IMG/VR virus record: IMGVR_UViG_3300032053_000013 | Location: 32,001 to 96,000 of that record | Direction: 5' to 3' (one strand) | From: a virus | Length of the DNA: 64,000 bases | Shown here: positions 3,926-58,894 of the stretch, in pieces | Position numbering within the stretch: position 1 is the first letter of the stretch | How the letters are laid out: every line of letters starts with the position of its first letter | Position numbers and translations under genes: made by a program | The notes under the pieces: model-generated | Seen by the model: only the letters and a program-made list of their open reading frames with translations | The model's database searches: none | What the model was told of the DNA's origin: nothing

Positions 3926-3951
3926 TCGGCCACGGACACCATGAATCCGAG

Positions 3952-3995
3952 ACGGCAGGTCGGCCCCGGAAGGGGTTGGCCTGCCGTTTTTGTTT
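3952..3995 (+). terminator. Intrinsic terminator after MCP
   Basis: ACGGCAGGTCGGCCCC-GGAA-GGGGTTGGCCTGCCGT stem-loop followed by TTTTGTTT. Confidence 0.85.
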
Positions 3996-4048
3996 CGGTC
4001 TGGACGGTCCCCGGCGCGGCGTGTAGGATGGGGTGAGGAGGTCCTTAC

Positions 4049-5402: not shown

Positions 5403-5403
5403 G

Positions 5404-5847: not shown

Positions 5848-5854
5848 GGCGCGC

Positions 5855-7767: not shown

Positions 7768-7777
7768 GGGATTTCCA

Positions 7778-7993
7778 ATGCCGGAAGCCCAGAAGAAGCG
7801 GGTCCTCATGAGCATCAGCCGGAGCATGGTCTCGATGGACGCCCCCGGAGGGGGGATCCATTTCATGCCCTCCCAGCGCCTGGAGGTCTCCGAGGCGGAC
7901 TTCGCCAGCCCCCAGGTCCAGAAGCTGCTGCGGTCGAAGTTCCTGGTGGACGTGACCGCGGCCGGGGAGAGGCGGAGGGCCGGGGCGAGGTGA
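7778..7993 (+). CDS. Small hypothetical protein upstream of sheath
   Basis: 71 aa, fills the gap, phage-like codon use. Confidence 0.65.
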   Translation: MPEAQKKRVLMSISRSMVSMDAPGGGIHFMPSQRLEVSEADFASPQVQKLLRSKFLVDVTAAGERRRAGAR

Positions 7994-8060
7994 CCGCCCC
8001 CTGTCCACGGAGTCAGGTCGCCCGAGTGACGGGGCAGAGATCCGATGAAAGGACGGCCAC

Positions 8061-21395: not shown

Positions 21396-23162
21396 TTGAC
21401 CACGATCAGCAAGGTCACGAACAGGATCCCCCCGATCGACTACACCTCCCGCGACTTCGAGGCGATCGCGCAGGACATGGTGCGGGCGATCCCGTTCATG
21501 GCCCCGGAGTGGACGGACAACAACCTCTCCGACTTCGGGATCGTCCTCCAGAGGCTCGTGGCCATGGTGTCCGACTGCCTCCACTTCTACCTGGACCGCA
21601 CGGCGAACGAGGCGTTCCTGCCCACGGCGATCACGAGGAGGAGCGTCATCAACCTCCTCCAGCTCATCAACTTCACCCTGAACAGCGCGGCCCCGGCCTC
21701 GGTGGACGTCCGGTTCCACATGGCGAACGCGCTCCCCGGCGACCTCCTGATCCCGAAGGGGACGGAGAGCCAGACCACGGCGGACGCGACGGACGGCCCG
21801 ATCTACTTCGAGACGTCGGCGGACGCGGTGATCCCCGCCGGGGACCTGGAGGTGACGGCGCCCGCGGTGGAGGGCCGGACCAGGACGGAGACCCTCGGGG
21901 TGAGCCTCGGGATCGCCCGCCAGAGGTTCGATGTCTCCGGGTCGCCCGTCATCGACGGGAGCCTCGCCATCGCGATCGACGAGGGGGTCGGGCCGGAGGC
22001 GTGGTCCGAGGTGGAGTCGTTCGCCTACGCCGGGCCGGACGACAAGGTGTTCACGACCATCCGGGACGAGAACGACAAGATCACGGTCCTGTTCGGGGAC
22101 AACGCCCAGGGGAAGATCCCGGACAACGGGGCGATCATCGAGTCCGAGTACCGGGTGGGAGGGGGGCTGCGGGGGAACGTGCCGGAGGGGACGATCGTCA
22201 CGGTGAACGACGTGCCCACCTACAACGCGGTGCCGGTCAGCCTGGCGGTCACGAACGACCTGGCCGCGAGCGGCGGCGAGGACGCCATGACCATCGAGGA
22301 GGCGAAGGTCCTCGGGCCCCAGAGCCTCCTGGCCCTCAACAGGGCGGTGACGGCCCTCGACTTCAAGACGCTGGCGGAGGCCTTTCCCGGCGTCGCCAGG
22401 GCGTCCGTCGTGGTCGGGGCCTACCCCGTGGACGTGTCGACGGGGTGCTGCTGCCTCGTCAGGCTCATCATCGCCCCCACCGGAGGGGGGACGCCGTCGT
22501 CCCAGCTCAAGTCCGACCTCGCGGACTACCTCGAGGCCCGGAAGATGATAGGGACGTGCCTGGAGATCGTGGACCCGACCTACCAGCCGGTGGACGGGGC
22601 CGGTACGATCTACATGGCCGGGAACTTCTCCACGGAGCAGGGGGCGCAGGACGTGGAGGACTCCCTCTCCGCCTTCTTCGACCTGGGGAGCGAGTACGTC
22701 GGGTTCGGGCAGTCCCTCTACCTGTCCGACTTCTACCACCTCCTGGAGTCCATCTCCGGGGTGGACCACGTCGACCTGACGGAGCTGACCCGGAGGCCGG
22801 TGCCCGTATGCTCGCCATGGACGTCGGACTGCGGGCTGACGAACTTCGTGGTCGGGCCCTCCGCCAAGAACGAGGGGTGGACGGTGACCGCGACCTCCCC
22901 GACGACCTTCTCCGTGGTGGGGTCGGTCAGCGGGCCCCAGAACCCCGGGACGGTAGGGGTGGGCTACACGACCAACGGCGGGGAGGTGTCGTTCAAGATG
23001 GAGTGCACGAGCGGGACCCTGGTGGTGGGCGAGAAGTGCCAGTTCACTACCAGCCCGAAGGTCGCCAACGTGCCGATGAAGCCGCTGGAGGTCATGACCA
23101 AGGGCGTCTTCACGTTCAGCTTCGTCGGAGGGGCCAGGCCCCAGAGGGTGTGCCCGGTATGA
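21396..23162 (+). CDS. Baseplate J-like (gp6) protein
   Basis: IDYTSRDFEAI, PEWTDNNLSDFG, FGDNAQGKIP, GGEDAMTIEEAK, RAVTALDF. Confidence 0.92.
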   Translation: MTTISKVTNRIPPIDYTSRDFEAIAQDMVRAIPFMAPEWTDNNLSDFGIVLQRLVAMVSDCLHFYLDRTANEAFLPTAITRRSVINLLQLINFTLNSAAPASVDVRFHMANALPGDLLIPKGTESQTTADATDGPIYFETSADAVIPAGDLEVTAPAVEGRTRTETLGVSLGIARQRFDVSGSPVIDGSLAIAIDEGVGPEAWSEVESFAYAGPDDKVFTTIRDENDKITVLFGDNAQGKIPDNGAIIESEYRVGGGLRGNVPEGTIVTVNDVPTYNAVPVSLAVTNDLAASGGEDAMTIEEAKVLGPQSLLALNRAVTALDFKTLAEAFPGVARASVVVGAYPVDVSTGCCCLVRLIIAPTGGGTPSSQLKSDLADYLEARKMIGTCLEIVDPTYQPVDGAGTIYMAGNFSTEQGAQDVEDSLSAFFDLGSEYVGFGQSLYLSDFYHLLESISGVDHVDLTELTRRPVPVCSPWTSDCGLTNFVVGPSAKNEGWTVTATSPTTFSVVGSVSGPQNPGTVGVGYTTNGGEVSFKMECTSGTLVVGEKCQFTTSPKVANVPMKPLEVMTKGVFTFSFVGGARPQRVCPV

Positions 23163-42708: not shown

Positions 42709-43641
42709 ATGAAACGCGCACTTTTGGTCGGCATCAATAGGTATCCAGGTGCCCCCTTACGCGGGGCGCTGAACGACGTCGAGGACTGGCACGGGGTCCT
42801 CGCGGCGCGAGGGGGGTACTCCCCGGACAACATCAGGGCGGTGTGCGACGAGCGGGCCACGACGCAGGGCATACGGGACCGCATGGCGTGGCTCAGGGAG
42901 GGGCTGAAGGGGCCCGGCGACGAGGTCTTCTTCGCCTTCTCGGGACACGGCTCCCAGGTCCGCGACAGGGGCGTCCTCGACGAGCTCGCGGACAACCTGG
43001 ACGAGATCCTCGTGCCCGTGGACATCGACTGGAACACCAGGGTCATCACGGACGACGACGTCGGGGACTGGCTCAAGACCTTCCCGGCGGGGGCCAAGAT
43101 CACGGTGGTCTTGGATTGCTGCAACAGCGGATCCGGGACCAGGGGGCTCAGGCCCCCCCAGGAGAACCCGCACTACAAGGCAGACCGATACCTCCCGCCG
43201 CCCCTGGACATCGCCCTCAGGGCCGGTGGGCTCGCCACGCGGAGGGGCGTGGAGGTCGGCGTCAGGATAGGGTGCGGGCACGGGAAGAGGAACGGCTGGA
43301 GGGAGGCCAAGGCGAACGGCAAGAAGAAGAGCCTGTTCTGGTGGAGGAATCCGAGCCCGAGGCCCAAGCCCGCCCCGATTTCCACCCCTGCCCCGGCGCT
43401 GAGCCACGTCCTCATCTCCGGCTGCCGGAGCGACCAGACCAGCGCGGACGCGCTCATCAACGGGAGGTACAACGGAGCCCTGTCGCGCTTCCTCATCGAC
43501 GCGGTCAGGATGTCCCCGAAGGGGACGCCGATGGCGGCCGTCCAGGCCGAGGCGAGGAAGGCGATCATCCTGGCCGGGTACACCCAGGAGTCGCAGATCG
43601 AGGGGCCGGAGTTCCTGCTCAAGGCCCCGTTCTTCATGTAG
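42709..43641 (+). CDS. Caspase-family (C14, metacaspase-like) cysteine protease
   Basis: KRALLVGINRY, LRGALNDV, FAFSGHGSQ (His), VLDCCNSG (Cys), ISGCRSDQTSADA, YNGALS. Confidence 0.92.
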   Translation: MKRALLVGINRYPGAPLRGALNDVEDWHGVLAARGGYSPDNIRAVCDERATTQGIRDRMAWLREGLKGPGDEVFFAFSGHGSQVRDRGVLDELADNLDEILVPVDIDWNTRVITDDDVGDWLKTFPAGAKITVVLDCCNSGSGTRGLRPPQENPHYKADRYLPPPLDIALRAGGLATRRGVEVGVRIGCGHGKRNGWREAKANGKKKSLFWWRNPSPRPKPAPISTPAPALSHVLISGCRSDQTSADALINGRYNGALSRFLIDAVRMSPKGTPMAAVQAEARKAIILAGYTQESQIEGPEFLLKAPFFM

Positions 43642-43650
43642 GAGGCGCAC

Positions 43651-44517
43651 ATGACGGTTCCGTACTTCACCCCCGAGGACAAGAGCATCTACGGCACGTT
43701 CGCCGATGAGTACCAGAGGCTCCTCGACAACATCGCGAGCGGCTTCGCCAACGTGGGGTCCGAGGAGAAGATGATGGACGCTGGCGGGGCCGGGGTGGGC
43801 TACGTCCACTTCCTTTCGCAGCCCGACGCCGAGGACGCCATCATGATCGACGGGCAGATCTACCGCTACTTCCAGGGGTCGCCCCCGAGGCCCCCGCGCC
43901 CGCCGTGGCGTCCGCCGTGGAGGCCGATACCCCGCCCCCGCGAGCCCTTCCTCCCGAGGGAGATCCTCCCGAGGGAGATCCCGTCCGGCGAGTTCGACGT
44001 GGGGATCATCATCGGGAACGACGTCGAGCAGACCATCGACCGCACCGCCGCCGCGATCGAGGGCAACATCTACACGGGCGTCCGGGGCATCCGGGCGGTC
44101 AACGGGGCCGGGCCGGTCCTCCTCCTGGCGGCCAGGTGGGCGGGGGCCGACTCCAACTTCCCGATCGAGGAGAGCACGGGCGGTGTCCGCATGGTGGTGG
44201 GCGAGGGCGAGGCGCGGAGCGCCGCGACCCCCCGCCAGAGGAAGGTCGTGACCTGCAACTACGCCATGAACGGGCGCGACATCGCGGCCCTGGCGGCGCC
44301 GTGCGAGATACCGATCATGTGCTGCATCGCCAGCACCTCCCCGCAGTTCGGGGGGGCGATCCTTTTGCGGGGGATGGGCCTCAACGTGGTCCCCTTCACG
44401 ACGGACGTCGGCTTCGGCGTCCGGCAGATCGGGGACGAGCTCTGGATCATCACGATTCACGACCTGGGCGGGGTCATCCAGGAAGGCGACGCCATGCTCG
44501 TGACCGCGTGGACGTAA
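43651..44517 (+). CDS. Hypothetical virion-associated protein with Pro/Arg-rich insert
   Basis: 288 aa; N-terminal YFTPEDKSIYG motif shared with 44551 and 45089. Confidence 0.6.
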   Translation: MTVPYFTPEDKSIYGTFADEYQRLLDNIASGFANVGSEEKMMDAGGAGVGYVHFLSQPDAEDAIMIDGQIYRYFQGSPPRPPRPPWRPPWRPIPRPREPFLPREILPREIPSGEFDVGIIIGNDVEQTIDRTAAAIEGNIYTGVRGIRAVNGAGPVLLLAARWAGADSNFPIEESTGGVRMVVGEGEARSAATPRQRKVVTCNYAMNGRDIAALAAPCEIPIMCCIASTSPQFGGAILLRGMGLNVVPFTTDVGFGVRQIGDELWIITIHDLGGVIQEGDAMLVTAWT

Positions 44518-44550
44518 CCCGCCGAAGGCGGAGAGAAGAAGGAGGACAAG

Positions 44551-44991
44551 ATGGGAGCCTACGTAAGACCTGACAAGGCGATCCGGGAGAACATCATCGT
44601 CAAGATGGAGGAGGACCGCGACGCGATCCAGGCCGCCTTCTCCTCCAGCCTCGTCGAGACCTCGGTGGACTTCATCAACGACGCCCCCCCGGTGGGCGGC
44701 GACGTGCGGATCAGGATGGCGCTGGGCACGATGACACCCGTGTCGGGGTTCTGCTGCTGCATGCCGGGGACCGGACCCGGGGCGACCATGGACATCAAGA
44801 TCGGCACCCCCGGAGGCCCCTCGATCCTGACGGCCCCGGCCCCGATCGCCTCGACCCCCGGCGTCCCGGTGCCGCTGTCGTTCGTCCCCGGAGTGTCGAT
44901 CCCGGCGGGCACCCCGATCTGCTACGTCCTGACGGACATCGGCGCGCCGGTGATCTTCCCGACGGCGAACGTGCAGTGGCTCGTGAGCTGA
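44551..44991 (+). CDS. Hypothetical beta-rich protein
   Basis: 146 aa; N-terminal PDKAIRENII motif; jelly-roll-like C-terminus. Confidence 0.6.
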   Translation: MGAYVRPDKAIRENIIVKMEEDRDAIQAAFSSSLVETSVDFINDAPPVGGDVRIRMALGTMTPVSGFCCCMPGTGPGATMDIKIGTPGGPSILTAPAPIASTPGVPVPLSFVPGVSIPAGTPICYVLTDIGAPVIFPTANVQWLVS

Positions 44992-45088
44992 CGCATTCGA
45001 TGCCGTAGCAGGATTCCCAAAGGAACCAGCCAGCGGGTCGCGGGAGCCGGAATATAAGCCCGGCCCCTGAATTAGGGGGAGAAGACCA

Positions 45089-46600
45089 ATGAGAAGGCAG
45101 ACTTATTACACCCCAGGGGATAAATCTATATATGGGAACATCATTGACGAACTGGAAAGTGAGCGCGGCAGACTTGAGGCCGGATTTCAGACTGTCTTCT
45201 CCTCCGTAGAGCAGCTGATTCCTTCAGAGAACCTGAATTTTTACATCGACCCAACCAACGGGAATGACGCAACCGCCGATGGAGCGATAATCACCCCGTT
45301 TAAGACCTGGAAGGCTTTTTGGGAATCGAACGTCCTCCCGAAGGCCACAAGGAAATCCATCAACGTCAAGATCTTTCCAGGTGTTCTCGACTGGGTGTAC
45401 CTGTCGGGGATAAACGTCTACCAACCCGGATCCCTCAACATCTATGCGGACATGAAGCCTGCCGTCATCACGGGAATGAACCAAGGGACGGCTTCCGGTG
45501 GAACGACATACTCCCTCCAGAAAGCGGGAGCCGGGTGGGCACCAAACCAACTTGCCGGGAAGTCGTGGCGGATCACGGCTGGAACTCACATGTGGTACAG
45601 CGGGAAGATCGTTACCAACACGGCAACGGAGTTCTTCATCGCCCCTTTGATGGGGACGCCTATCGACGCCACGGACGTGTTCATCATCGAGGAATCAACG
45701 GTTCTGGTGAACCCCCCCCTGATGTATAACCATCCCAATCCCTTGACGGTGTACGATAGCAGAGGAAACATCAACATCCAAAACCTGGACTTCCAGGCCA
45801 ACGAGCACCGCTACCAGTATTACGCGGGAAGAATAACCAGGAGTGGCGACGGAATCATCTTCTTTAACTGCATGTTCAGGGGATCGAGTCCGGCGTCTCT
45901 CGCAGCATTGAAAGATCCTCTGTGGACATCTCGGGCACACGACTCGACGTTTTTTCTTTGCTCGTTCATCTCTCAGGAAGGAGTTACGACGGAGTCCATC
46001 ATTCAACACGACGGACCCACCAGTAAGATGGATTACTACGGATGCGCCTTTAACGATTGCATCCATGTCTACTACGGCATGGACCACCTCTCCATACAGA
46101 ACTGCCACCGCATACAGCGGGCAGGGAGCACAGGGAGCGACGTCCTCCGGACGGTCAACTACTTCCAGCCCATCAACAGTAGGATCGACTTCAATCTAAC
46201 CGGGGCGGGCATACGATTCGATGGCCCGTCCTGCATGGACGCCCGCTACACGCAATTCCTTCGGTCCAGCGGAAAGGGTCTGTGGACATACGGCTACTAC
46301 GGCGATGGTGTCCGCCTGTCTTTCATTGGGGGAGAAGTAGGGGGTTGCGTCGGGGATGGGATTGATGTGGGACCATGCTCTTCCGTGGCCATGGTTTCTC
46401 TTCTCACGAACCCAGCCGCCATCAACGGCGGGTGGGGGCTCAAACTCCGAAATGGAGCGAAGGCCGCATACGCCGGAGTCAGCTCTCTCAAGGGGGCATT
46501 GGGGGATGTGAACCTTGGAGACGGGGTAACCAATGTCCCGATAAATACGACAGCGACCGACACGACGCACCTAACTCGGATAGCGCCTTTCGGAGGGTAG
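45089..46600 (+). CDS. Tailspike/depolymerase-like beta-helix protein
   Basis: FYIDPTNGNDATADG...PFKTW, INVKIFPG, beta-helix repeats; markedly lower GC. Confidence 0.7.
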   Translation: MRRQTYYTPGDKSIYGNIIDELESERGRLEAGFQTVFSSVEQLIPSENLNFYIDPTNGNDATADGAIITPFKTWKAFWESNVLPKATRKSINVKIFPGVLDWVYLSGINVYQPGSLNIYADMKPAVITGMNQGTASGGTTYSLQKAGAGWAPNQLAGKSWRITAGTHMWYSGKIVTNTATEFFIAPLMGTPIDATDVFIIEESTVLVNPPLMYNHPNPLTVYDSRGNINIQNLDFQANEHRYQYYAGRITRSGDGIIFFNCMFRGSSPASLAALKDPLWTSRAHDSTFFLCSFISQEGVTTESIIQHDGPTSKMDYYGCAFNDCIHVYYGMDHLSIQNCHRIQRAGSTGSDVLRTVNYFQPINSRIDFNLTGAGIRFDGPSCMDARYTQFLRSSGKGLWTYGYYGDGVRLSFIGGEVGGCVGDGIDVGPCSSVAMVSLLTNPAAINGGWGLKLRNGAKAAYAGVSSLKGALGDVNLGDGVTNVPINTTATDTTHLTRIAPFGG

Positions 46601-46832: not shown

Positions 46833-46874
46833 GGGGATTTCAATAGGAACCTCGGTCCCTCTTTCTTTCCTGAT

Positions 46875-46908
46875 CCGCCGGGGGTTCGCGCCTCCGGCGG
46901 GTTTTTTT
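46875..46908 (+). terminator. Strong intrinsic terminator ending the late region
   Basis: CCGCCGGGGG-TTCGCG-CCTCCGGCGG followed by GTTTTTTT. Confidence 0.9.
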
Positions 46909-46919
46909 CGCCCAGGCTG

Positions 46920-46947
46920 TTGACGACTTGGGGAAAAGGGGTATAAT
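46920..46947 (+). promoter_or_regulatory. Early-type promoter TTGACG-N16-TATAAT (1)
   Basis: Read directly from sequence. Confidence 0.85.
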
Positions 46948-46975
46948 AAAGGAGTCAAGTGCAGGAGGGGACGAG

Positions 46976-47326
46976 ATGATGGCGACGGCGAGCAGGTCGG
47001 AGAGGGACGCCAGGCGGGCGAAGGTCCGCGAGGCCCTCAAGGCCATGATGGTGTTCTCGGACGACGACCCCGAGGTCGCGAAGTTCTCCGAGAAGGTCGC
47101 GGAGCTCCGGCACGAGTACCGGGAGGGGAGGCTCTTCGTGGGGAAGGACAGCCCCCCGAAGCACGAGATCCGCCGGTCGAAGACGGGCAACGTCTACTGC
47201 CGGTGCCCCGACTTCGCCTTCCGCCAGCGGGAGGGCCGGGCCGGGGGGACGGGGGTCTGCAAGCACGTAGCTTTTGCCTTGTGCATGGACCTGGAGATCC
47301 CGGCGACGGGGGAGGGCGGGCTGTAG
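46976..47326 (+). CDS. SWIM zinc-finger protein
   Basis: YCRCPDF...CKHV (CxCx n CxH). Confidence 0.85.
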   Translation: MMATASRSERDARRAKVREALKAMMVFSDDDPEVAKFSEKVAELRHEYREGRLFVGKDSPPKHEIRRSKTGNVYCRCPDFAFRQREGRAGGTGVCKHVAFALCMDLEIPATGEGGL

Positions 47327-47340
47327 GAGCCCCTTTTTTT
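47318..47340 (+). terminator. Possible terminator after SWIM gene
   Basis: GGGCT-GTAGG-AGCCC then C and T7; short stem. Confidence 0.45.
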
Positions 47341-47352
47341 CGCGGAATCTTG

Positions 47353-47380
47353 TTGACGAAAGCAGGAAAGCCCGTATAAT
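47353..47380 (+). promoter_or_regulatory. Early-type promoter TTGACG-N16-TATAAT (2)
   Basis: TTGACGAAAGCAGGAAAGCCCGTATAAT. Confidence 0.85.
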
Positions 47381-47423
47381 AGAGGCGTGAGGTAGAGGTA
47401 GTCGAGAAGGAAGGAGACGGGCC

Positions 47424-48515
47424 ATGCGGATCGGAGAGGTCGCGAACGTGATACGGGCTCACGAGGCCGCGGGGAACGCGGTCATGCTGTGGGCCCCCCC
47501 GGGCGTGGGGAAGTCGGCCCTGGTCCGACAGATGTGCGAGGAGGACGGGATCGAGTGCATCGACATCCGCCTCTCCCTCCTGAACCCGGTCGACCTCCGC
47601 GGGATCCCGGTGGTGCGCGGGGACAAGGTCGAGTGGGTGCCCCCCGTGTTCCTGGTCAAGCGCGGCCCCTGCCGGTTCTTCCTCGACGAGATCAACTGCG
47701 CGCCCCCGGCCACCCAGGCGGCGGCGTATCAGTGGATCCTCGACGGGCGGATCGGCGAGTGGTCCATGGACAAGACGGTCGAGAACGGCCGCCCCCGGCA
47801 GACGATCATCGCGGCCGGGAACAGGGCCTCGGACCAGGCGGTCGTCCACCAGATGCCCGCCCCCCTGCGCAACCGCATGGCCCACGTGGAGGTGGAGCCC
47901 CACCTCGACGACTGGCGCGAGTGGGCGTGGGCGCACGGGGTCGACTCCGGCGTCATCAACTTCCTCGCCTTCACCTCGCGGATCGGGGTGGGGATCAACG
48001 AGAAGTCGGCCTGGGGCCTGCTCTTCTTCTTCGACCCGAAGGTCCATGCCTCCGGGTCCTTCCCGACCCCCCGGTCGTGGGAGCAGGTGAGCAGGTTCAT
48101 CACGGCGAACCCGAAGCTCCGGACGAACACCGAGGCGGTCGCCGGGATGGTCGGGGCGGCGGTGGCGCAGAAGTTCACGGCCTTCATGAAGGTGGCGGAC
48201 AAGCTCCCGAGCGCGGACCGGGTCCTCGACGGGGACATGGGGCTGGCGCCCCCGGCCGAGCCCTCCGCCCTGTACGCCTTCTGCGGCGCCCTGTCGGCGG
48301 CCCTGATCCGCCGGGACAAGGCGACGCGGGGGAAGGCCATGGAGAACGTCGCCTCCTACTGCGCGAAGCACTGGTCGGGCGACGCTGAGTTCGCGATCCT
48401 CACGATGCGCGACTTCGGGCGGACGGCGGAGTTCCGGGAGGTCTACCGCGGCGTCCTGACCTCGAAGGGCTGGAAGGACTTCTCGAAGGTCTTCGGGAAC
48501 CTGCTCCAGGAGTGA
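47424..48515 (+). CDS. MoxR/dynein-related AAA+ ATPase
   Basis: WAPPGVGKS Walker A, DIRLSLLNPVDLRGIP, FFLDEIN Walker B, AAGN sensor, PLRNR arginine finger, PTPRSWE. Confidence 0.92.
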   Translation: MRIGEVANVIRAHEAAGNAVMLWAPPGVGKSALVRQMCEEDGIECIDIRLSLLNPVDLRGIPVVRGDKVEWVPPVFLVKRGPCRFFLDEINCAPPATQAAAYQWILDGRIGEWSMDKTVENGRPRQTIIAAGNRASDQAVVHQMPAPLRNRMAHVEVEPHLDDWREWAWAHGVDSGVINFLAFTSRIGVGINEKSAWGLLFFFDPKVHASGSFPTPRSWEQVSRFITANPKLRTNTEAVAGMVGAAVAQKFTAFMKVADKLPSADRVLDGDMGLAPPAEPSALYAFCGALSAALIRRDKATRGKAMENVASYCAKHWSGDAEFAILTMRDFGRTAEFREVYRGVLTSKGWKDFSKVFGNLLQE

Positions 48516-48522
48516 GCGGGAG

Positions 48523-48870
48523 ATGGGGGGGAAGATGGACGCGGCGAAGGAAGCAAAGGGGATCCTCGGCGGGACGTCGAAGAGCGGGGCCCCGAAGGGG
48601 AGGGCCGAGGCGGAGGCGCTCCGGTGCTCCCTGGTGGCGGCCCTGGTGGGGATGCCGAAGGCGGAGCGGGCCGAGGCCACGAAGGCCCTCGCCCTCCACC
48701 TCGCCCGGCACTGGTCGGGGAAGGGCGACCGGAGGGCGGCTCTCGAGGTCGTGGCGGCCTTCGGCAGGACCCCGGAGTACCGGGAGGTCTACAAGAGCCT
48801 CCTCACCTCCGTGGCCTGGGTGGAGTTCTCCAGGCAGTTCTCGGGGGACATCGCCGAGATCCTCGCTTGA
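48523..48870 (+). CDS. Stand-alone paralogue of the AAA ATPase C-terminal helical domain
   Basis: HWSG...FGRT.EYREVY..LLTS..W..FS..F aligns with the end of the 47424 protein. Confidence 0.75.
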   Translation: MGGKMDAAKEAKGILGGTSKSGAPKGRAEAEALRCSLVAALVGMPKAERAEATKALALHLARHWSGKGDRRAALEVVAAFGRTPEYREVYKSLLTSVAWVEFSRQFSGDIAEILA

Positions 48871-48894
48871 CGAAAGCAGGAAAGCCTGTATAAT
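48867..48894 (+). promoter_or_regulatory. Early-type promoter TTGACG-N16-TATAAT (3)
   Basis: Differs from promoter 2 by 1 nt; its TGA is the stop codon of the upstream gene. Confidence 0.85.
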
Positions 48895-48921
48895 AGTGGT
48901 GTCTTGTGAGGAGGCAGGGAC

Positions 48922-50511
48922 ATGGCAGAGGAGAGAGGTCCGCTGGTCAAGGCGGGGGTCCAGCTCGTCCTGAACCACCCCTTCTTCGGGGTGCTCTTCT
49001 GCCACCTGCGGAAGGTGCCGCTGTCCGCCAGCCGCATGGTCGCCATCTGCGGGATGCCGACGGCGGCGGTCGACGGCAAGACGATCTTCTACAACGAGGA
49101 GTGGGTCGGGAAGCTGCCGGAGAAGGCCCGCATGGGCCTCCTGGCGCACGAGGTCCTCCACCCCGCCCTCGGCCACCTCTGGCGCCGGGGCAACAGGCAC
49201 CTCGAGCTGTGGAACTGCGCGGTGGACTTCGCGGCGAACGACATCATCAAGCGCATGATCCCGAACGTGGAGCTGCCGGACGGCGGGCTCTACGACTCCC
49301 GCTTCCAGGGGATGGCGGCCGAGCAGATCTACTCGATCCTGGAGAAGGAGGCGAGGAAGATCACGCGGCCCGGAGGGGGCGACGGCCACCTGGAGAAGAC
49401 CGTGCGGGACGGGCAGGACCCGAAGGGCGGGAAGGGGAGGCAGAAGGCCGGCGGCAAGCCGGAGGAGAAGAAGGGGAAGGGCGCGGGGAAGGGGGAGGAG
49501 AAGGGGAAGAAGGGGAAGGGCGCCGGGGGGAAGAAGGCGAAGGAGGAGAAGGGGGACGAGGATGGCGAGGGGGACGCCGACCCCGAGGACGGGAAGTCCG
49601 ACAGCCTAACGGAGGCGGAGAGCAAGGCCGAGGGGCAGAAGGGCAAGGGGAAGGACGGGCAGGAGGGGGAAGACGGGGAGGGGTCGGAGGAGGACGGGGA
49701 GGGGGAGGGCAAGGGCGGGAAGGGCAAGGGCGAGGGCAAGGGCGAGGGCGAGGGCCAGGCACCGGCCGAGCAGCAGGAGGGGGAGGGCGGGGGCGAGGAG
49801 AGCGACACGGGGGAGATGGAGGACGGGCCCGAGGAGAGCATGGAGCAGCACTGGAGGGACGTGCTGGTCCAGGCCGCGATGGTCGCGAAGCAGAAGGGCA
49901 ACCTCCCGGCCCAGCTCGCCCGCCTGGTCGAGGACGTCACGGCCCCGAAGGTCCCGTGGCAGGCGATCATCGAGCAGTTCCTCACGGAGGTCCTGCGCGA
50001 CGACTACGACATGATGAAGCAGGACCGCCGGTTCATCGAGCAGGGGATCTACTTCCCCGACCTCCAGTCGAACGCGACGAGCGTGGCGGTGGCGGTGGAC
50101 ACGAGCGGCTCGATCGGCAAGAGGGAGCTGGTCGCCTTCGTGAGCGAGATGACGGGCCTCCTCCGGTGCAGGGGGATCGCGAGCATGAGGGTCATGGCGT
50201 GCGACGCGGAGGTCACCCTGGACGAGACGCTCGGCCCGACGGACCCCCTGCCGGAGAACTACCCCGGAGGCGGCGGGACCGACTTCCGCCCGGTCTTCAA
50301 GCGGCTGCGGGACGGGATGCAGTCGGGGGAGCGCCCCGCCCTCCTGGTCTACCTCACGGACGGGTGCGGGACCTACCCGGAGAGGGACGAGCTGGGGATC
50401 CCGGTCATCTGGATGATGACGACCGACGCCTACCGCAAGGAGGAGAGCCTTCCGGAGCCGCCGTTCGGGGTGCGGATCCCCTACGAGATCGGGGGGAGGG
50501 ACGACGAGTGA
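48922..50511 (+). CDS. Metallopeptidase-like (HExxH) + low-complexity linker + VWA-like protein (DUF2201 type)
   Basis: PTAAVDG..IFYN, LLAHEVLH, WN.A.D.A.N; VAVAVDTSGS MIDAS, GGGGTDFRP, VYLTDG. Confidence 0.9.
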   Translation: MAEERGPLVKAGVQLVLNHPFFGVLFCHLRKVPLSASRMVAICGMPTAAVDGKTIFYNEEWVGKLPEKARMGLLAHEVLHPALGHLWRRGNRHLELWNCAVDFAANDIIKRMIPNVELPDGGLYDSRFQGMAAEQIYSILEKEARKITRPGGGDGHLEKTVRDGQDPKGGKGRQKAGGKPEEKKGKGAGKGEEKGKKGKGAGGKKAKEEKGDEDGEGDADPEDGKSDSLTEAESKAEGQKGKGKDGQEGEDGEGSEEDGEGEGKGGKGKGEGKGEGEGQAPAEQQEGEGGGEESDTGEMEDGPEESMEQHWRDVLVQAAMVAKQKGNLPAQLARLVEDVTAPKVPWQAIIEQFLTEVLRDDYDMMKQDRRFIEQGIYFPDLQSNATSVAVAVDTSGSIGKRELVAFVSEMTGLLRCRGIASMRVMACDAEVTLDETLGPTDPLPENYPGGGGTDFRPVFKRLRDGMQSGERPALLVYLTDGCGTYPERDELGIPVIWMMTTDAYRKEESLPEPPFGVRIPYEIGGRDDE

Positions 50512-51245
50512 GTGGCGAGGAGGAGGCGGTCGGCGAGGGCGGGGACGAGGGCGTCTTCGTCCCGTACACGGAGGTGAGGAGGGAGGCCCTCGGCTTCCTG
50601 GCCTCGTCCGGGTACCGGCTGGAGGCCGACGCGATGGACGCGTCGTGGGGGAGCACGGCGGACGGGAACTGGGAGAGGAAGGTAGCCGAGCGGGACGTCG
50701 AGCCGGGCGTCCTGATCCACGTGACGGAGAGGCCGCCGAACCCGGAGATCCGGGTCTACCTGGTCCGGGTGCTCGGGGGGATTTCCAAGCCCATCAGCAG
50801 GCCCAGGAAGATGTCGTACCGGAACCCCGAGCGGGTGCGGGCGTACCTGCCGAGGGTGGAGGCGGATCTGCTGGAGGGGCTGCGGACGCGGTGCCCCCAC
50901 TGCGGGGGCCCGATGGCGGAGAGGAAGGTCAAGAACCCGGAGTCGAAGAACGCGGGGAAGACCTTCCTGGGGTGCCTCCGGTACCCCGAGTGCCGGGGCG
51001 CGGTCGCGGAGTGGATCCCGAGGGCGGCCTCCGACGACGGGAAGATGGTCGGGGCGGCCTGCCCGGACTGCGGGTCCCCCCTGGTCGTCCGGTACGTGAA
51101 GAGGGAGGACCTGCCGCACCGGGGCCAGTCGTTCATCGGGTGCTCCGGCTACCCCAAGTGCAGGAGGATCGTCACGCGGGAGGAGCTCATGGCGCTGAGG
51201 TTCATGGCGCCGAGGGAGGAGGGGGAGGGCGAGCCGGCCTTTTGA
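50508..51245 (+). CDS. Protein with two topoisomerase I-type C4 Zn ribbons
   Basis: CPHCGGPM...FLGCLRYPECR and CPDCGSPLVVR...FIGCSGYPKCR; GTG start at 50508. Confidence 0.85.
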   Translation: MSGEEEAVGEGGDEGVFVPYTEVRREALGFLASSGYRLEADAMDASWGSTADGNWERKVAERDVEPGVLIHVTERPPNPEIRVYLVRVLGGISKPISRPRKMSYRNPERVRAYLPRVEADLLEGLRTRCPHCGGPMAERKVKNPESKNAGKTFLGCLRYPECRGAVAEWIPRAASDDGKMVGAACPDCGSPLVVRYVKREDLPHRGQSFIGCSGYPKCRRIVTREELMALRFMAPREEGEGEPAF

Positions 51246-51269
51246 CGAAACGAGGAAAGCCCGTATAAT
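51242..51269 (+). promoter_or_regulatory. Early-type promoter TTGACG-N16-TATAAT (4)
   Basis: TTGACGAAACGAGGAAAGCCCGTATAAT; its TGA is the upstream stop codon. Confidence 0.85.
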
Positions 51270-51320
51270 AAAGGTGCGAGCGGGTTGCGGAGGACGTGGG
51301 GCCAAGAGAAGGAGGGGACC

Positions 51321-51914
51321 ATGAGCGGGCTGAGCGAGATTGGGATCCTGCACTACGACATCCCCGGAGGGCTGAACTGCTTCTGGTACCGGCTCCAGCG
51401 CGTCCTGCGGTCGGGCCGGGCTCTCCAGGCGTCCAAGTCGGTGTACCTGGTCAACTGGGCGGACGTGCCGAAGGTCCAGGAGCTGATCGACGGGGCCAAG
51501 AAGGCCTTCGCGGAGAAGTACCCCGAGCGCGTGGGCGGGCTCTGGGGCCTCAGGATGTCCTTCCTCAAGTTCGACGACGCGACTGCCGAGGAGGCGCGGG
51601 CGATGGCCGTGGACGGCCTGTCACGCCTCATCTCCGAGATCGGGGCCGCACTCAAGGCCCGGATCGAGAAGATGAGGGAGTACGGCGAGGAGGACCTGCC
51701 CCAGCGCGTGAAGCGGTCCTTCGCCCAGCGCGTCCAGGAGTGCGAGGGCCTGGCGGTCGCCTTCCGCCTCATGGAGGAGGTCGAGGTCGCCCTCGACGCG
51801 GTCAAGAAGGTCGTGGTCGCCGAGGTCGGCGCCGATGTCTACGCCACGGTGGCGGACGGGAAGCGGATGAAGCCCCGCCGGGCGAAGAAGGAGCCGTGCG
51901 GGTCGGCGGCGTGA
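51321..51914 (+). CDS. Protein with N-terminal Cas2/PaaX/ChrB-N-like ferredoxin fold and helical C-terminus
   Basis: ILHYDIP...RLQRVL..GRALQASKSVYLV pattern; SD AAGGAGG. Confidence 0.5.
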   Translation: MSGLSEIGILHYDIPGGLNCFWYRLQRVLRSGRALQASKSVYLVNWADVPKVQELIDGAKKAFAEKYPERVGGLWGLRMSFLKFDDATAEEARAMAVDGLSRLISEIGAALKARIEKMREYGEEDLPQRVKRSFAQRVQECEGLAVAFRLMEEVEVALDAVKKVVVAEVGADVYATVADGKRMKPRRAKKEPCGSAA

Positions 51915-51957
51915 ACGAGGACGCGGCGGGAGCCGCGGGGCCCCGCCGCCGTTTCGG

Positions 51958-52731
51958 GTGAGGGAGATGATCGACAGGAGCCTTCTCGGACGCGGGTGGA
52001 AGCCGTACAGGGGGTGCTGCCTGCTCGGCTTGATTGAGCCCCGCCTCGTCGACCGGGTCGGGTACGAGGTCGACTTCGAGGGGGCGTGCCGGATCGTGGC
52101 GAGGGAGGCCGTTTCTTCCCTTCCGGGGGAGGCATCGACCGACTGGGACGATGTACGGCAGGACAAGGAGTTTGACGCCAAGATCGTCTCGACTCACCCC
52201 AAGCTGTGGCGGTACTGGGACGACCGGGGAAACATCCGTAAGCACCTGGAGGACGTCCTGGGCGAGGCCCTCGGGGGCGGGGAGGTCGGGGGACTTCTCC
52301 GGCACGCCAACGTCTCCTCCATTCTGGAGGTGCTGGACCACGCCGTAGTGAGGACCATGGCCCTGGACCGCCTGCGGGCGAGGATCCGCGACGGGGAGGA
52401 GCGCAAGATCTGGTTCACCAAGCCGCCGGAGACGATGATGCTTCCAGACGCCCATGAAATCTGGCGGGGGCCGTGGAAGGTCCTGGGCTGGAGGAGGGCG
52501 TACACGGGGGTCTACTACCCGTCATCGGGGGACGGGGAGGGCTTCGATCCCGCTGGTCTCGCCAGGACCAAGGCCCACACGATCCTGAAGATCACCTACG
52601 TCGGGGAATGGGCCGGGTGGGGCGAGCATGTCGCCCTGAAGGAGGACACCTACCCGTGGAACAGCGAGGAGGTGGCCATGCGTATGATGGAGGAGCCCGC
52701 CGAGTCGGGCGCCGGGACGGATGGAAATTAG
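51958..52731 (+). CDS. Hypothetical protein
   Basis: 257 aa, phage-like codon use. Confidence 0.65.
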   Translation: MREMIDRSLLGRGWKPYRGCCLLGLIEPRLVDRVGYEVDFEGACRIVAREAVSSLPGEASTDWDDVRQDKEFDAKIVSTHPKLWRYWDDRGNIRKHLEDVLGEALGGGEVGGLLRHANVSSILEVLDHAVVRTMALDRLRARIRDGEERKIWFTKPPETMMLPDAHEIWRGPWKVLGWRRAYTGVYYPSSGDGEGFDPAGLARTKAHTILKITYVGEWAGWGEHVALKEDTYPWNSEEVAMRMMEEPAESGAGTDGN

Positions 52732-52917
52732 GTGGGGAGGTGCTGCATGCCGGAGGTGAAGTGCCCCCGGTGCGGGGAGGAGATGAGGGACGGGAAGTGC
52801 CGGGCCTGCGGGGCCTGGATGGACTCCTACGGGATCGTCCACGCCGAGGGCTGCCAGGGCGGGTTCCACGAGGAGTGCCCGGGGGAGCCGAGGGGCAAGC
52901 CCAGGAAAAGGTCTTGA
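52732..52917 (+). CDS. Small Zn-finger protein
   Basis: CPRC, CRAC, His/Cys-rich. Confidence 0.55.
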   Translation: MGRCCMPEVKCPRCGEEMRDGKCRACGAWMDSYGIVHAEGCQGGFHEECPGEPRGKPRKRS

Positions 52918-52941
52918 CGAAAGTCGGATCGGGGATATAAT
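52914..52941 (+). promoter_or_regulatory. Early-type promoter TTGACG-N16-TATAAT (5)
   Basis: Its TGA is the upstream stop codon; ATG 52948 lies 6 nt after the -10 box (leaderless). Confidence 0.85.
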
Positions 52942-55704: not shown

Positions 55705-56282
55705 AGATCGGGGATGTAGTCATCCTGAAGGGGAAGGTGGTAGAGAAGGAATGTGGCTCCATCTCATCGAAGGGGGATCACCTCACCCTCATCGAGGGGA
55801 AGGCCGACATCGGAGGATGCGTACTGGCGAAGGACTGGCGGGGGGAGGTTCACTGCATCAATCCGGACCTTTTCGAGGTGGTATGGACCCGCGAGGAGGA
55901 AGTCGCCAGGAAGATGATGGATCCGGAGCCCGTGCAGTTCAAGCCGGTGAGCCTCCCGGAGATCGAGCAACGGCTCCTACAGTCCATGGCCCAGATGGTG
56001 TCTGTCAATCTCGACAAGGAGATCACCGCCGACTGGAAGTGGGTGGAGGGAAAGATGAACGCGAGCAGGCATGAGCCGCCGCCGAGGCCGGGGGAGAAGA
56101 GGGTCCTCGACCTCGTCCTCGCCGACCTCAGGGCGCGGGCGGAGGCGGGGAAGATCAAGTACGGGACGTACCTCATGACGCGGAACGGGAGGGACGCCCT
56201 GATGGACGCGTACCAGGAGGCGCTGGACCTTGTCATGTACCTCCGCCAGGAGCTCGAGGAGAAGGAGGAGAGGCGTGGGTGA
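55701..56282 (+). CDS. Hypothetical N-terminal domain fused to MazG-like nucleotide pyrophosphohydrolase-type domain
   Basis: C-terminal G..KYGTYLM..NGRDALMDAYQEALDLVMYL; internal SD plus in-frame ATG at 56055. Confidence 0.55.
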   Translation: MKIGDVVILKGKVVEKECGSISSKGDHLTLIEGKADIGGCVLAKDWRGEVHCINPDLFEVVWTREEEVARKMMDPEPVQFKPVSLPEIEQRLLQSMAQMVSVNLDKEITADWKWVEGKMNASRHEPPPRPGEKRVLDLVLADLRARAEAGKIKYGTYLMTRNGRDALMDAYQEALDLVMYLRQELEEKEERRG

Positions 56283-56514
56283 GAAGAAGGTCTGCCCGAG
56301 GTGCGGGAAGGAGTTTGTCGAGGGGCGCGAGGAGTACATGGACCCGACGAAGCACGGGTGGCCGGTGCCGACGGGCCAGAAGAGCGCGGACGGCTTCGAC
56401 GTCTGGAGGGTCCTCCTCTGCGCCGACGCGACGCCGGAGCAGGTCGCGGAGTACAGGGCCGTCAAGACGGACCAGTCCCTGGGGATCAGGTCCGTGGGAT
56501 TCGGGAAGAACTGA
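56275..56514 (+). CDS. Small hypothetical protein (CPRC)
   Basis: GTG start after AGGAGAGG. Confidence 0.55.
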   Translation: MGEKKVCPRCGKEFVEGREEYMDPTKHGWPVPTGQKSADGFDVWRVLLCADATPEQVAEYRAVKTDQSLGIRSVGFGKN

Positions 56515-56726
56515 TGGTGGAAATGATCAGAAGGCGGACAACCATCGACCTCGCCATCTACACGTTCCAGGAGACGGAGGGGTCGTTCTGCCCCTGCGGG
56601 GGGAAGGCGCACCTCCTGGCGCCGAGGGAGCCGGACCGCGACGCGCCCATCTTCTACCTCTGCGCGAAGTGCGGACGGATCGCCCAGGCGGGCGTCGGAG
56701 AGGTGTCGCCTCAGGAGGATCGATGA
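56514..56726 (+). CDS. Small Zn-ribbon protein
   Basis: CPCG and CAKC; coupled at both ends. Confidence 0.55.
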   Translation: MVEMIRRRTTIDLAIYTFQETEGSFCPCGGKAHLLAPREPDRDAPIFYLCAKCGRIAQAGVGEVSPQEDR

Positions 56727-58894
56727 TGGAGACGGAGTACGTCAGGTCGCTGCGGGTGGACTGGAAGGCGGAGCCGCCGGTCGGATCCCCGACGGTCGTG
56801 AGCACCTTCGCCGGGTGCGGGGGGAGCTCGCTCGGGTACCGGATGGCCGGGTTCCGGGAGCTGCTCGCCGTCGACTTCGAGGAGAACGCCGTGGCGACGT
56901 TCGCCAGGAACTTCCCGGGGGTCCCGGTCTGGCAGCGGGACATCACGAAGGTCACGGCGGAGGAGGTCCTGTCCTTCTGCAAGATCGGGAAGGGGGACCT
57001 GGACGTGTTCGACGGCAGCCCGCCGTGCTTCCCGGCCGGGACGGATGTGTGGACGGCGCGTGGGAAGGTGCCGATAGAAGGGGTTGAGATAGGGGATCTT
57101 GTGCTTACGCATAGGGGTCGGTACAGGAGGGTGGTCGGGAGGACGAAGAGGATAGCGGGAGGGCTGAGAAGGCTGGTAATCAAGTATGGTCGGGAGGATA
57201 TTGTTTGCACCGAGGGGCACCCTTTGTATGTGAGGAGGAGGGCGGGTCCGAGAGTGAGGAGTTACTCCGCGCCCGAGTGGGCCGCGGCGAAGGAGATTAG
57301 GCCGGGCGATGTTGTTCTGGAGCCGCATGTCGCGGAGGTCCCCGATCTGGTCGTGCCGGATGTGGTAACAAGGCAGAGGATCAACGTGGAGGGGCAGAGC
57401 GGGTCCGACCGGAGCGAGATGCGGCTGCTGTCGAGGCCGTGTTCCTTGGATTGGAAATCCTCTGAGTTTGCATGGGTTCTGGGGTTCTACGTGGCCGAGG
57501 GGCATCGCCGGGGCCGAGAGCCGACGTTTGTTGATGGGGGGCCATATCGGCGCGAGGTGGTGTTCTCGGTTGCGGATAAGGAAGCGGCTCCGCTTTCCGT
57601 GAGGCTGTCGGGGATGGGCCTCCATGCCTGCGTCCAGAGGCACAGCCAGGGATCGTCGAGGGTGTCGGTGAGCGACCTGGACCTGTGGTCTCTTGTGGGG
57701 GTTGTGGGGGAGGGCGCGGGGGGCAAGAGGATACCGGCGGCGTTCCATGCCCAGCCGGAGGAGTGGCAGAAGGCTTTCCTGGACGGGTACTTCGAGGGGG
57801 ATGGGTGCCTGAAAAGGAACGGGAAGGCAGGGGTCGTCAGGAAGGCGACCACGGTGTCGAGGGACCTCGCGGAGGGCGTGGCCAGGATGGTCGCCAGGGC
57901 GTTCGGAGTGGTGGCGTCGATTGATGTTCTTTATCCCGCGGGTGTAGGTAGCATCCAAGGCAGAAGTGTGATGGTAAGGGAGGCGTATTCGGTCGGCTAT
58001 AGCCTTCCGGGATCGAGGAAGCCGAGGCCAGGGTTTGTCGATGAGGCTGGGGCGTGGCTGCCCGTCGTGAGTAATGAGGAAGAGGATCGGGCTGCGGAGG
58101 ACGTCTACAACCTGGAGGTGGAGGAGGACGAGTCGTACGTGGCTGGAGGACTGGCGGTCCATAACTGCCAGGGCTTCTCGATGAGCGGGTCGAGGAAGGT
58201 GAGCGACCCGAGGAACAGCCTGTTCATGGAGTTCGCGCGGCTCATCGAGGGGCTGGGGCCGAGGGTCTTCCTCATGGAGAACGTGGCCGGGCAGGTGCGC
58301 GGCAAGATGCGGGGGGCCTTCATCGAGATCATGAGGGTGCTGAAGGGGACGGGGTACGCGGTGAAGTGCGCGCTGCTCAACGCGGCGCACTACGGGGTTC
58401 CGCAGCACAGGGAGAGGATGATCTACATCGGGGTGAGGCCCGACGTCGGGGCGGAGCCGTCGTTCCCCAGGCCGTCGGCGAGGGTGGTGACGTGCGGCGA
58501 GGCCATCGGGGACCTGGAGGGGTTCGACGACGGGGTGAAGATGCCGGGGTTCTCGAAGAGCCCGAGGGCGAGCAGGATGCTTAGCCAGATCCGGGAGGGG
58601 CAGCATGGGCTGGACGCCGACGCCAAGGGCGGGTACTTCAACACCGCGAGGATCGACAGGCTGAGGGTCGCTCCCACCATCCTCAAGACGAGCAGCCCCG
58701 CGTCGGGCCTGGTCCACTACGACGGGAGCAGGTGGCTCACCATCGCGGAGGCGAAGAGGATCGCGTCCTTCCCCGACGACTTCGAGCTCATCGGGAGCTA
58801 CCAGCACAGGTGGGCGAGGATCGGGAACGCGGTCATGCCCATGTTCATGCGGGCGCTGGCGTCCCACGTCAGGAAGGAGATCCTGGGGAGATGA
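56723..58894 (+). CDS. C5 cytosine DNA methyltransferase precursor containing an intein
   Basis: STFAGCGG (motif I), GSPP|CQGFS (motif IV split by intein), MENV (VI), GVPQHRER (VIII), IGNAV (X). Confidence 0.95.
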   Translation: MMETEYVRSLRVDWKAEPPVGSPTVVSTFAGCGGSSLGYRMAGFRELLAVDFEENAVATFARNFPGVPVWQRDITKVTAEEVLSFCKIGKGDLDVFDGSPPCFPAGTDVWTARGKVPIEGVEIGDLVLTHRGRYRRVVGRTKRIAGGLRRLVIKYGREDIVCTEGHPLYVRRRAGPRVRSYSAPEWAAAKEIRPGDVVLEPHVAEVPDLVVPDVVTRQRINVEGQSGSDRSEMRLLSRPCSLDWKSSEFAWVLGFYVAEGHRRGREPTFVDGGPYRREVVFSVADKEAAPLSVRLSGMGLHACVQRHSQGSSRVSVSDLDLWSLVGVVGEGAGGKRIPAAFHAQPEEWQKAFLDGYFEGDGCLKRNGKAGVVRKATTVSRDLAEGVARMVARAFGVVASIDVLYPAGVGSIQGRSVMVREAYSVGYSLPGSRKPRPGFVDEAGAWLPVVSNEEEDRAAEDVYNLEVEEDESYVAGGLAVHNCQGFSMSGSRKVSDPRNSLFMEFARLIEGLGPRVFLMENVAGQVRGKMRGAFIEIMRVLKGTGYAVKCALLNAAHYGVPQHRERMIYIGVRPDVGAEPSFPRPSARVVTCGEAIGDLEGFDDGVKMPGFSKSPRASRMLSQIREGQHGLDADAKGGYFNTARIDRLRVAPTILKTSSPASGLVHYDGSRWLTIAEAKRIASFPDDFELIGSYQHRWARIGNAVMPMFMRALASHVRKEILGR
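57026..58165 (+). mobile_element. Intein with LAGLIDADG endonuclease (380 aa)
   Basis: Starts CFPAGTDV, ends VYNLEV...YVAGGLAVHN followed by Cys +1; LGFYVAEG and FLDGYFEGDG motifs; distinct codon use. Confidence 0.95.

Follow-up and report, generated by a model that had tools for sequence, protein, structure and literature searches.

A phage gene module combining an N4 gp24/gp25-like MoxR ATPase and zincin-vWA pair with small zinc-finger partners and a row of host-type promoters

We analysed a 64,000-nt stretch of viral DNA (the window), which comprises bases 32001-96000 of the 122,285-bp IMG/VR record IMGVR_UViG_3300032053_000013, with a CheckV completeness of 82%. It contains a module of five genes encoding a small SWIM-type zinc-finger protein, a MoxR-class AAA+ ATPase, a free copy of the C-terminal domain (CTD) of this ATPase, a protein with a HExxH zincin domain and a von Willebrand factor A (vWA) domain, and a protein with two zinc ribbons. 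An earlier interpretation of the letters (the sequence-only reading) had named these five genes, and all of them are present on the plus strand at 46976-51245, with the zinc-ribbon gene overlapping the vWA stop codon (GTGA). The span it assigned, 46976-51914, covers this five-gene module and additionally a sixth gene with its own promoter, which its title left out. The features of the locus are:

46872-46903, plus strand: intrinsic terminator with a 14-pair stem (9 GC pairs) and a T-run after it, closing the tail/fibre block
46920-46947, plus strand: promoter P1, TTGACG-N16-TATAAT (11/12 consensus positions), driving the SWIM gene
46976-47326, plus strand: small SWIM-type zinc-finger protein, 116 aa, a helical N-terminal part followed by CxCPxF...CKH
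47318-47332: weak hairpin with a T-run at the end of the SWIM gene
47353-47380, plus strand: promoter P2, TTGACG-N16-TATAAT, driving the ATPase gene and the CTD paralogue
47424-48515, plus strand: MoxR-class AAA+ ATPase, 363 aa, N4 gp24-type (AAA_5 and phrog_1297)
48523-48870, plus strand: free paralogue of the ATPase CTD, 115 aa (alternative start at 48535)
48867-48894, plus strand: promoter P3, TTGACG-N16-TATAAT, driving the zincin-vWA and zinc-ribbon genes
48922-50511, plus strand: zincin (HExxH)-vWA protein, 529 aa, N4 gp25-type (DUF2201_N, DUF2201 and phrog_1314)
50508-51245, plus strand: two-zinc-ribbon protein, 245 aa, with two C4 units of the Topo I type (Zn_ribbon_Top1)
51242-51269, plus strand: promoter P4, TTGACG-N16-TATAAT, in front of the 197-aa gene
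51321-51914, plus strand: 197-aa protein, behind its own promoter P4
52914-52941: a further TTGACG-N16-TATAAT promoter, the fifth perfect site of the region 46920-52941
60768: TTGACC variant of the promoter

The ATPase and the zincin-vWA protein are very probably a phage copy of the pair formed by gp24 and gp25 of phage N4, a MoxR AAA+ ring ATPase and a HExxH zincin/vWA adaptor with a metal ion-dependent adhesion site (MIDAS). The ATPase matched AAA_5 in Pfam with 26.8 bits (cut-off 22) and phrog_1297 with an E-value of 3.7e-76, residues 1-361 aligning to profile positions 9-353 of 356. Walker A (G27/K30/S31), Walker B (D88/E89) and sensor-1 (N133) were invariant in 20 homologues, and the best matches of the family profile were midasin AAA domains (E 1e-20), followed by CbbQ and NorQ. 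In the AlphaFold2 (AF2) model, which has a predicted local distance difference test (pLDDT) score of 88, the AAA+ core and lid occupy residues 1-260 and are followed by an extra five-helix CTD at residues ~262-363. Full-length chains of NorQ (Z 14.7, root-mean-square deviation (rmsd) 3.4, 218 residues aligned) and CbbQ (Z 14.4) superposed on residues 1-260 only. A CobS/CobT (cobaltochelatase) reading of the ATPase is not favoured, as phrog_249 scored an E-value of 4e-07 versus 4e-76 for phrog_1297.

Pfam detected DUF2201_N (E 1.5e-39) and DUF2201 (E 7.3e-17) in the zincin-vWA protein, and residues 8-519 matched positions 15-388 of the 394 in phrog_1314 (E 2.1e-88). The putative N-terminal zincin domain was assigned from the HExxH motif and the DUF2201_N match. 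Among 43 homologues H85 of the zincin site HExxH(x4)H was invariant and H76, E77 and H80 were found in at least 90%, while in the MIDAS D393, S395, S397 and D480 were invariant and T453 was found in at least 90%. The catalytic motifs are conserved in both proteins, Walker A and B in the ATPase and HExxH(x4)H together with the MIDAS in its partner. The C-terminal part adopts a vWA fold in the model (Z 11-13.4, rmsd ~2.8 over ~140-157 aligned residues), with the MIDAS domain of MDN1 as first Foldseek match and the vWA domain of NorD also among the matches. A K/E/G-rich insert of 150 aa (residues 152-300) is predicted to be disordered (pLDDT <50). Many GenBank phage records, as well as phrog_1314, carry the label 'HNH endonuclease' for this family; we treat it as an annotation error, apparently propagated, because no HNH domain was found.

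The relationship to N4 was also seen in direct comparisons. The ATPase matched N4 gp24 in tblastn with 28% identity (E 3e-20), the MoxR hidden Markov model (HMM) of the family recognised gp24 at 1.4e-62, and the vWA HMM recognised gp25 at 1e-20 and 4e-24. Gp24 and gp25 of N4 (Schitoviridae) belong to the same families as the window proteins (phrog_1297 and phrog_1314), follow the same order of ATPase and zincin-vWA protein on one strand, have conserved HExxH and MIDAS, and like the window pair are read as non-structural, pre-late genes. They are adjacent and followed by dCTP deaminase in an early-strand region; both are part of the 14-gene core of N4-like phages and are found among the middle transcripts (PMC4193335). 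In deposited phage records tblastn matched the ATPase in 819 and the vWA protein in 452, among them N4, numerous N4-like phages and jumbo phages such as G, RaK2, PA5oct and CBB. No cultured phage matched the window at the DNA level. Iyer et al. 2021 described MoxR and metallopeptidase-vWA proteins as a 'chaperone-cochaperone' in group 2.2 jumbo phages (PMC7824862). Outside phages the pair is common on large plasmids. In Thermus oshimai it lies between genes for RecQ- and UvrD-type helicases and in a Desulfomicrobium genome beside a DUF2325 gene.

Hence the core pair itself is not new. What makes this locus an informative variant of the known module are three small partners particular to the lineage, of which two are zinc-finger proteins, and the row of strong host-type promoters. 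Compared to N4, the lineage of the window adds the SWIM protein, the free CTD copy and the translationally coupled zinc-ribbon protein of the Topo type, and the window phage has a consensus promoter for each transcription unit and the 150-aa charged insert in its vWA protein. N4 gp24 shows no detectable match to the CTD profile, and neither N4 nor phage G has SWIM, zinc-ribbon or free CTD genes nearby.

A MoxR-class AAA+ ring acting with a MIDAS-bearing vWA partner or domain is also the arrangement of NorQ-NorD, CbbQ-CbbO and midasin (Rea1/MDN1). The AAA+ core and lid of the phage ATPase superpose on NorQ and CbbQ (Z ~14-15), and the phage vWA domain, its MIDAS intact, matches MDN1-MIDAS and NorD. 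In contrast, sequence identity is ~15%, the phage ATPase has the extra CTD, and the three known systems lack a zincin domain and have known clients (nitric oxide reductase, Rubisco and pre-60S factors). The pair might serve specifically to mature or activate one enzyme of the phage or the host, or a replication complex, inserting a metal centre or releasing an inhibited state as do NorQD, CbbQO, CoxDE and the BchID/CobST chelatases, with the zinc-finger proteins as clients or scaffolds. NorQ/NorD and CbbQ are indeed the closest solved relatives, the cyanophage 'porphyrin biosynthesis' (CobS-like) family phrog_249 gave a weak match, the plasmid pairs beside RecQ- and UvrD-type helicases are consistent with such a role, and so is the position of the N4 and window pairs in a replication/nucleotide arm. 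We nevertheless regard this explanation as unlikely, as no metalloenzyme or other client gene is conserved beside the pair across loci, the conserved HExxH, absent from the known maturation systems, points to cleavage, and phrog_249 scores far below phrog_1297.

The sequence-only reading had drawn a parallel to the E. coli cluster yehLMPQ. The parallel stands at the level of domain types, since yehL, yehM, yehP and yehQ are annotated as MoxR, unknown, VWA and SWIM and thus combine the same three types in one cluster, but not at the level of sequence: BLASTP against YehL, YehP and YehQ gave E-values of 0.21, 0.44 and 1.3, and we reject orthology. YehQ moreover is a 614-aa multi-SWIM protein, YehP is devoid of a zincin domain, and a YehM-type partner is absent in the phage. 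The E. coli WGR protein YehF is encoded upstream of yehI-yehLMPQ, and a WGR-domain protein (PF05406) is encoded outside the window (G000:C1:6447-7613; L095); this parallel may be a coincidence.

For gene context we used the metagenomic relatives L003, L005, L007, L008, L015 and L091 and the contigs P0002, P0133 and P0143, the close ones obtained by protein search and gene-context look-ups. A separate alignment-based scan of IMG/VR confirmed an ATPase relative in 591 of 599 candidate stretches, whereas a single-protein pattern scan had returned zero relatives, and 80 of the IMG/VR loci, with ATPase identities of 33-41%, served as a distant set. A vWA gene followed the ATPase gene in 47/47 distant loci with at least 2.5 kb of downstream sequence, at a median gap of ~200 bp, and an adjacent vWA partner was also found in the window, L003, L005, L007, L008 and L091.

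The small partners recur among the closer relatives. All five genes recur in L091, with subsets of them in four other relatives. L091, whose ATPase is 87% identical, has the module genes in the same order, namely SWIM, ATPase, CTD copy, vWA and zinc-ribbon, followed further downstream by a 191-aa gene, a DSPc phosphatase gene and a homologue of the 197-aa gene. Two free LAGLIDADG endonuclease genes (3262-4425 and 5147-6004) are inserted there, one on either side of the CTD copy. L003 (ATPase 75%) and the P0133 contig share the order SWIM, ATPase, vWA, zinc-ribbon, DSPc, and L005 (68%) has SWIM, ATPase, vWA and DSPc and no zinc-ribbon gene. In L007 (54%) ATPase, vWA and zinc-ribbon genes are followed by a uracil-DNA glycosylase (UDG) gene, and no SWIM gene was found within the available 1.9 kb upstream. 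L008 (41%) carries two SWIM genes, the ATPase gene and a vWA gene (6158-8557) interrupted by an intein with a LAGLIDADG domain; selfish elements thus target the module in the relatives L008 and L091. In the P0143 contig a PF04434-marked SWIM gene, 29% identical at the protein level, overlaps an AAA_5 gene, and in L015 (34%) the SWIM gene is located one gene upstream of the ATPase gene. In L015, the position of the zinc-ribbon protein is taken by a 73-aa Cys-rich protein (8574-8795; CPC...CPC...CHC) with a start codon overlapping the vWA stop. Taken together, SWIM is encoded directly upstream of MoxR in L003, L005, L008, L091, P0133 and P0143, and a zinc-ribbon homologue straight after vWA in L003, L007 and P0133, where its start and the vWA stop overlap, and in L091, where the gap is 33 nt.

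Because the genes form a recurring module, the outcome that would have spoken against the sequence-only reading, namely that they do not co-occur elsewhere, did not materialise; the conservation of the neighbourhood that it had suggested as a check is borne out by the five-gene order of L091 and the MoxR-vWA order of the distant loci. Beyond the closer relatives the partners become rare. In the 80 distant loci the SWIM HMM detected L015 only, with SWIM-like motifs within 5 kb in four others, and neither a zinc-ribbon homologue nor a free CTD copy was found there. No SWIM motifs were found near the plasmid, Desulfomicrobium, N4 and phage G homologues.

The free CTD copy aligned to ATPase residues 259-363 with 36% identity (E 4e-17) and, at the DNA level, with 75% identity over 72 nt. 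The sequence-only reading had called it a lid paralogue; because of this match, the copied part is instead the CTD that follows the lid (residues ~262-363). An exhaustive HMMER search grouped the free CTD homologues, of ~84-112 aa, into four clusters that scored above any ATPase C-terminus; the homologue in L091 lies between the ATPase and vWA genes. Compared with L091, the dN/dS was 0.58 for the free copy and 0.23 for the parental domain. The free copies have kept a C-terminal block, FGRT.EYREVY...W..F, in the last helices and have lost the YAF.GAL and AEFA..T motifs of the parental domain, which suggests that one surface for binding has been retained and the contacts with the body of the ATPase have gone.

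In the SWIM protein C75, C77, P78, C95, K96 and H97 were invariant in six homologues, in agreement with the CxCxnCxH signature. The Pfam SWIM model (PF04434) did not match the window protein at E-values up to 10, and it matched the L008 homologue with an E-value of 0.09. The SWIM family profile gathered only 25 clusters, three distant ones of which (E 1e-15 to 1e-17) bear PF04434, one of them as a 'faint' match only, and one is named 'Zn finger protein'. We base the SWIM status on the motif and on the profile links to PF04434-bearing proteins. No SWIM homologues were found in cultured phages by tblastn.

The zinc-ribbon protein matched Zn_ribbon_Top1 (PF01396) in two stretches with 57.7 bits (cut-off 32), and L003 shares both CxxC...CxxxxC sets. 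Because the GTG start codon runs into the vWA stop and has GGAGG in front of it, translation of the protein is predicted to be coupled to that of the vWA gene. An atlas search with its N-terminal domain gave no usable match, and tblastn detected no homologues in cultured phages, only Topo-type ribbons in E. coli and Salmonella records filed as phage. Homologues of the 197-aa protein also lie downstream of the module in L091 (94% identity over the available part), L003 (54%), L005 (47%) and L007 (49%) according to tblastn; the sole functional lead is an atlas match (score 0.85) to Cas2/PaaX_M/ChrB_N-like proteins.

The module is preceded by the strong terminator and studded with promoters of the sigma-70 type. 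In the window we observed 6 promoter matches versus 0.04 expected. Of the 9 perfect-type sites in the 122-kb record, 5 are located within the 6 kb directly after the terminator (46920-52941), and 4/5 of these are counted as driving the five module genes. P2, P3 and P4 are near-identical across all 28 bases, and the -35 hexamer of P3 supplies the stop codon of the CTD copy. The same kind of promoter precedes the module genes of L091, and the per-gene layout is kept. No phage sigma factor was found in the record, 82% complete as it is. The layout and the sigma-70-type consensus argue for transcription by the unmodified RNA polymerase of the host. The sequence-only reading had proposed that the genes are expressed first and from the strongest promoters; the consensus promoters are there, while the timing is read from sequence rather than observed.

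Upstream of the terminator the window is occupied by myovirus-type structural genes (1-46600), among them:

8061-10049: sheath
12041-14740: tape measure
21396-23162: baseplate wedge
42709-43641: metacaspase (Peptidase_C14, E 1e-21) at the end of the virion block
43651-46600: tail-fibre-like genes, directly before the module

In L003, L005 and the contigs P0002 and P0133 the same metacaspase gene likewise precedes the module at a distance of a few genes. The last fibre-like gene (45089-46600, 503 aa) has a G+C of 0.61, clearly below its surroundings, and its N-terminus weakly matches a tail-protein PHROG; the gene has the look of a receptor-binding module acquired recently. From 46.9 kb onward the window contains non-structural genes, including those for a C5 DNA methylase, ParB-like proteins, a replication initiator-like protein and an IstB-like ATPase, and past its end the record continues with Pol A, an SNF2-like helicase and RecA. 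The C5 cytosine DNA methylase gene (56279-58894) is split by an intein, as seen from Hint, LAGLIDADG_3 and Intein_splicing matches.

This position at the border of the two arms bears on the possibility that the pair is a virion-assembly chaperone with a processing protease, which folds or assembles tail or fibre components and uses its zincin to trim structural proteins. For jumbo phages, Iyer et al. 2021 proposed virion assembly, citing MoxR/vWA proteins of Acidianus two-tailed virus (ATV) that are reported to act in tail development (PMC7824862). The module directly follows the tail-fibre-like genes and is near the metacaspase gene, and this placement recurs in relatives. However, a strong terminator stands between the module and the late genes, and every unit is preceded by a host-type consensus promoter. 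The N4 homologues are among the middle transcripts, in an early-strand region and beside dCTP deaminase, the accessory proteins are zinc fingers of the nucleic-acid type, and the genes next to the module in relatives, for DSPc phosphatase, UDG and dCTP deaminase, do not encode virion proteins. We therefore hold a role in virion assembly to be improbable.

Our tentative preference is for a pre-replicative function, in which the module remodels, driven by ATP, and cleaves a protein target that is probably associated with nucleic acid; of the explanations weighed it is the favoured one, and we would put it somewhat below even chances. It is favoured because of the way promoters and terminator are arranged, an arrangement conserved in L091, the middle timing in N4, the two kinds of zinc module and the non-structural neighbours. 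The flanking arm with DNA methylase, ParB-like proteins, replication initiator, IstB-like protein, Pol A and RecA was counted in its support.

Timing, complex formation and target class are what we infer beyond the gene content, motifs, folds, promoters and co-occurrence, and the following course of events is conceivable. Host RNA polymerase would transcribe the module from the near-consensus sigma-70-type promoters before virion genes matter. The ATPase hexamer would dock the vWA adaptor, by analogy with NorQ-NorD, CbbQ-CbbO and midasin, and the MIDAS metal of the adaptor would grip an acidic residue of a specific target protein. ATP hydrolysis may then pull on or remodel the target, which the zincin domain would cut. 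The SWIM and zinc-ribbon proteins, whose modules are typical of nucleic-acid-associated proteins, could direct the machine to a target bound to DNA, candidates being an intermediate of phage replication or a host protein of the nucleoid, of transcription or of defence. The free CTD copy may compete for, or bridge to, a partner that normally binds the CTD of the ATPase itself.

Several observations weigh against this pre-replicative remodelling and cleavage. Early expression is a reading of promoter sequence, and the step from promoter to timing is an inferred one. The only function proposed in print for the phage pair is virion assembly together with the processing of peptides (PMC7824862), the module abuts tail-fibre genes, and the record is only 82% complete. 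The literature searched yielded nothing usable on the essentiality or the expression of gp24/gp25, and PADLOC and NCBIfam gave nothing for the ATPase and the vWA protein, nor for the SWIM protein and the CTD copy. In the P0002 contig, with an ATPase that is 87% identical, no vWA gene is present in the ~4 kb after the ATPase gene. Several small genes in a row and a gene of the sigma-70 family come next in this contig. Finally, N4, phage G and most distant loci lack the SWIM, zinc-ribbon and CTD-copy genes, which therefore cannot be essential to the core mechanism.

The mobile-element pair vcrx089 (AAA_5 + CbbQ_C) and vcrx090, the 'hde' genes of IncC/SXT elements, which counteract restriction in the recipient cell (Roy et al. 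2020, PMC7498323), is a thematic precedent for a pre-replicative function. It resembles the phage module in that a MoxR-class ATPase with an adjacent partner is expressed on arrival of a mobile element and counters a DNA-targeting host system. We compared the proteins of an IncC plasmid by hhalign. The ATPases matched with a probability of 61%, confined to the AAA core, and the partner matched the zincin-vWA protein with 0.3%, and we reject orthology; this lack of homology diminishes the weight of the precedent. IncC plasmids were not found among the plasmid matches of the phage pair.

A host-takeover or anti-defence system was what the sequence-only reading had proposed. Nothing in our analysis shows either, and PADLOC returned no match. 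Anti-defence is one version of the favoured class of function and is not specifically supported. In its most explicit form, SWIM and zinc-ribbon proteins would be DNA-targeting subunits that guide the machine to host proteins sitting on DNA, for instance nucleoid proteins or nucleases used in restriction or other defences, to be pulled off and cleaved early; phages and plasmids would then share, in the gp24/gp25 pair, a general protease powered by ATP for anti-defence or host takeover, with the free CTD copy as its regulator. We judge this elaborate form to be decidedly unlikely.

Conversely, the module could belong to a phage-borne conflict system for superinfection exclusion or defence against other mobile elements, following the logic of the vWA-MoxR ternary systems (Kaur et al. 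2020). Such systems with peptidase effectors have been described as conflict systems (PMC7159879), a cellular homologue of the pair lies near NERD, NOV_C and HATPase genes, and the pair is frequent on large plasmids. As it is a core pair of strictly lytic N4-like phages, as Pfam and PADLOC revealed no VMAP-like third component or effector domain in neighbouring genes (no VMAP profile was searched), and as PADLOC gave no match, a conflict system appears very improbable.

The window as a whole has a G+C of 62-70%, and nearly all genes with high G+C at third codon positions are on the plus strand. ARAGORN predicted a 93-nt tRNA-Ala(cgc) on the minus strand at 1640-1732, within the plus-strand open reading frame 717-2462, which is probably a false positive.

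Altogether, the pair is widespread, as it belongs to the core of N4-like phages and is found in 819 (ATPase) and 452 (vWA protein) phage records, with an ATPase relative in at least 591 IMG/VR stretches and with copies on many large plasmids. The lineage described here adds clues beyond the bare pair, namely two recurrently linked zinc modules of the nucleic-acid type, a domain of the ATPase duplicated as a gene of its own, and the promoter layout. These clues narrow the hypotheses on what the pair does.

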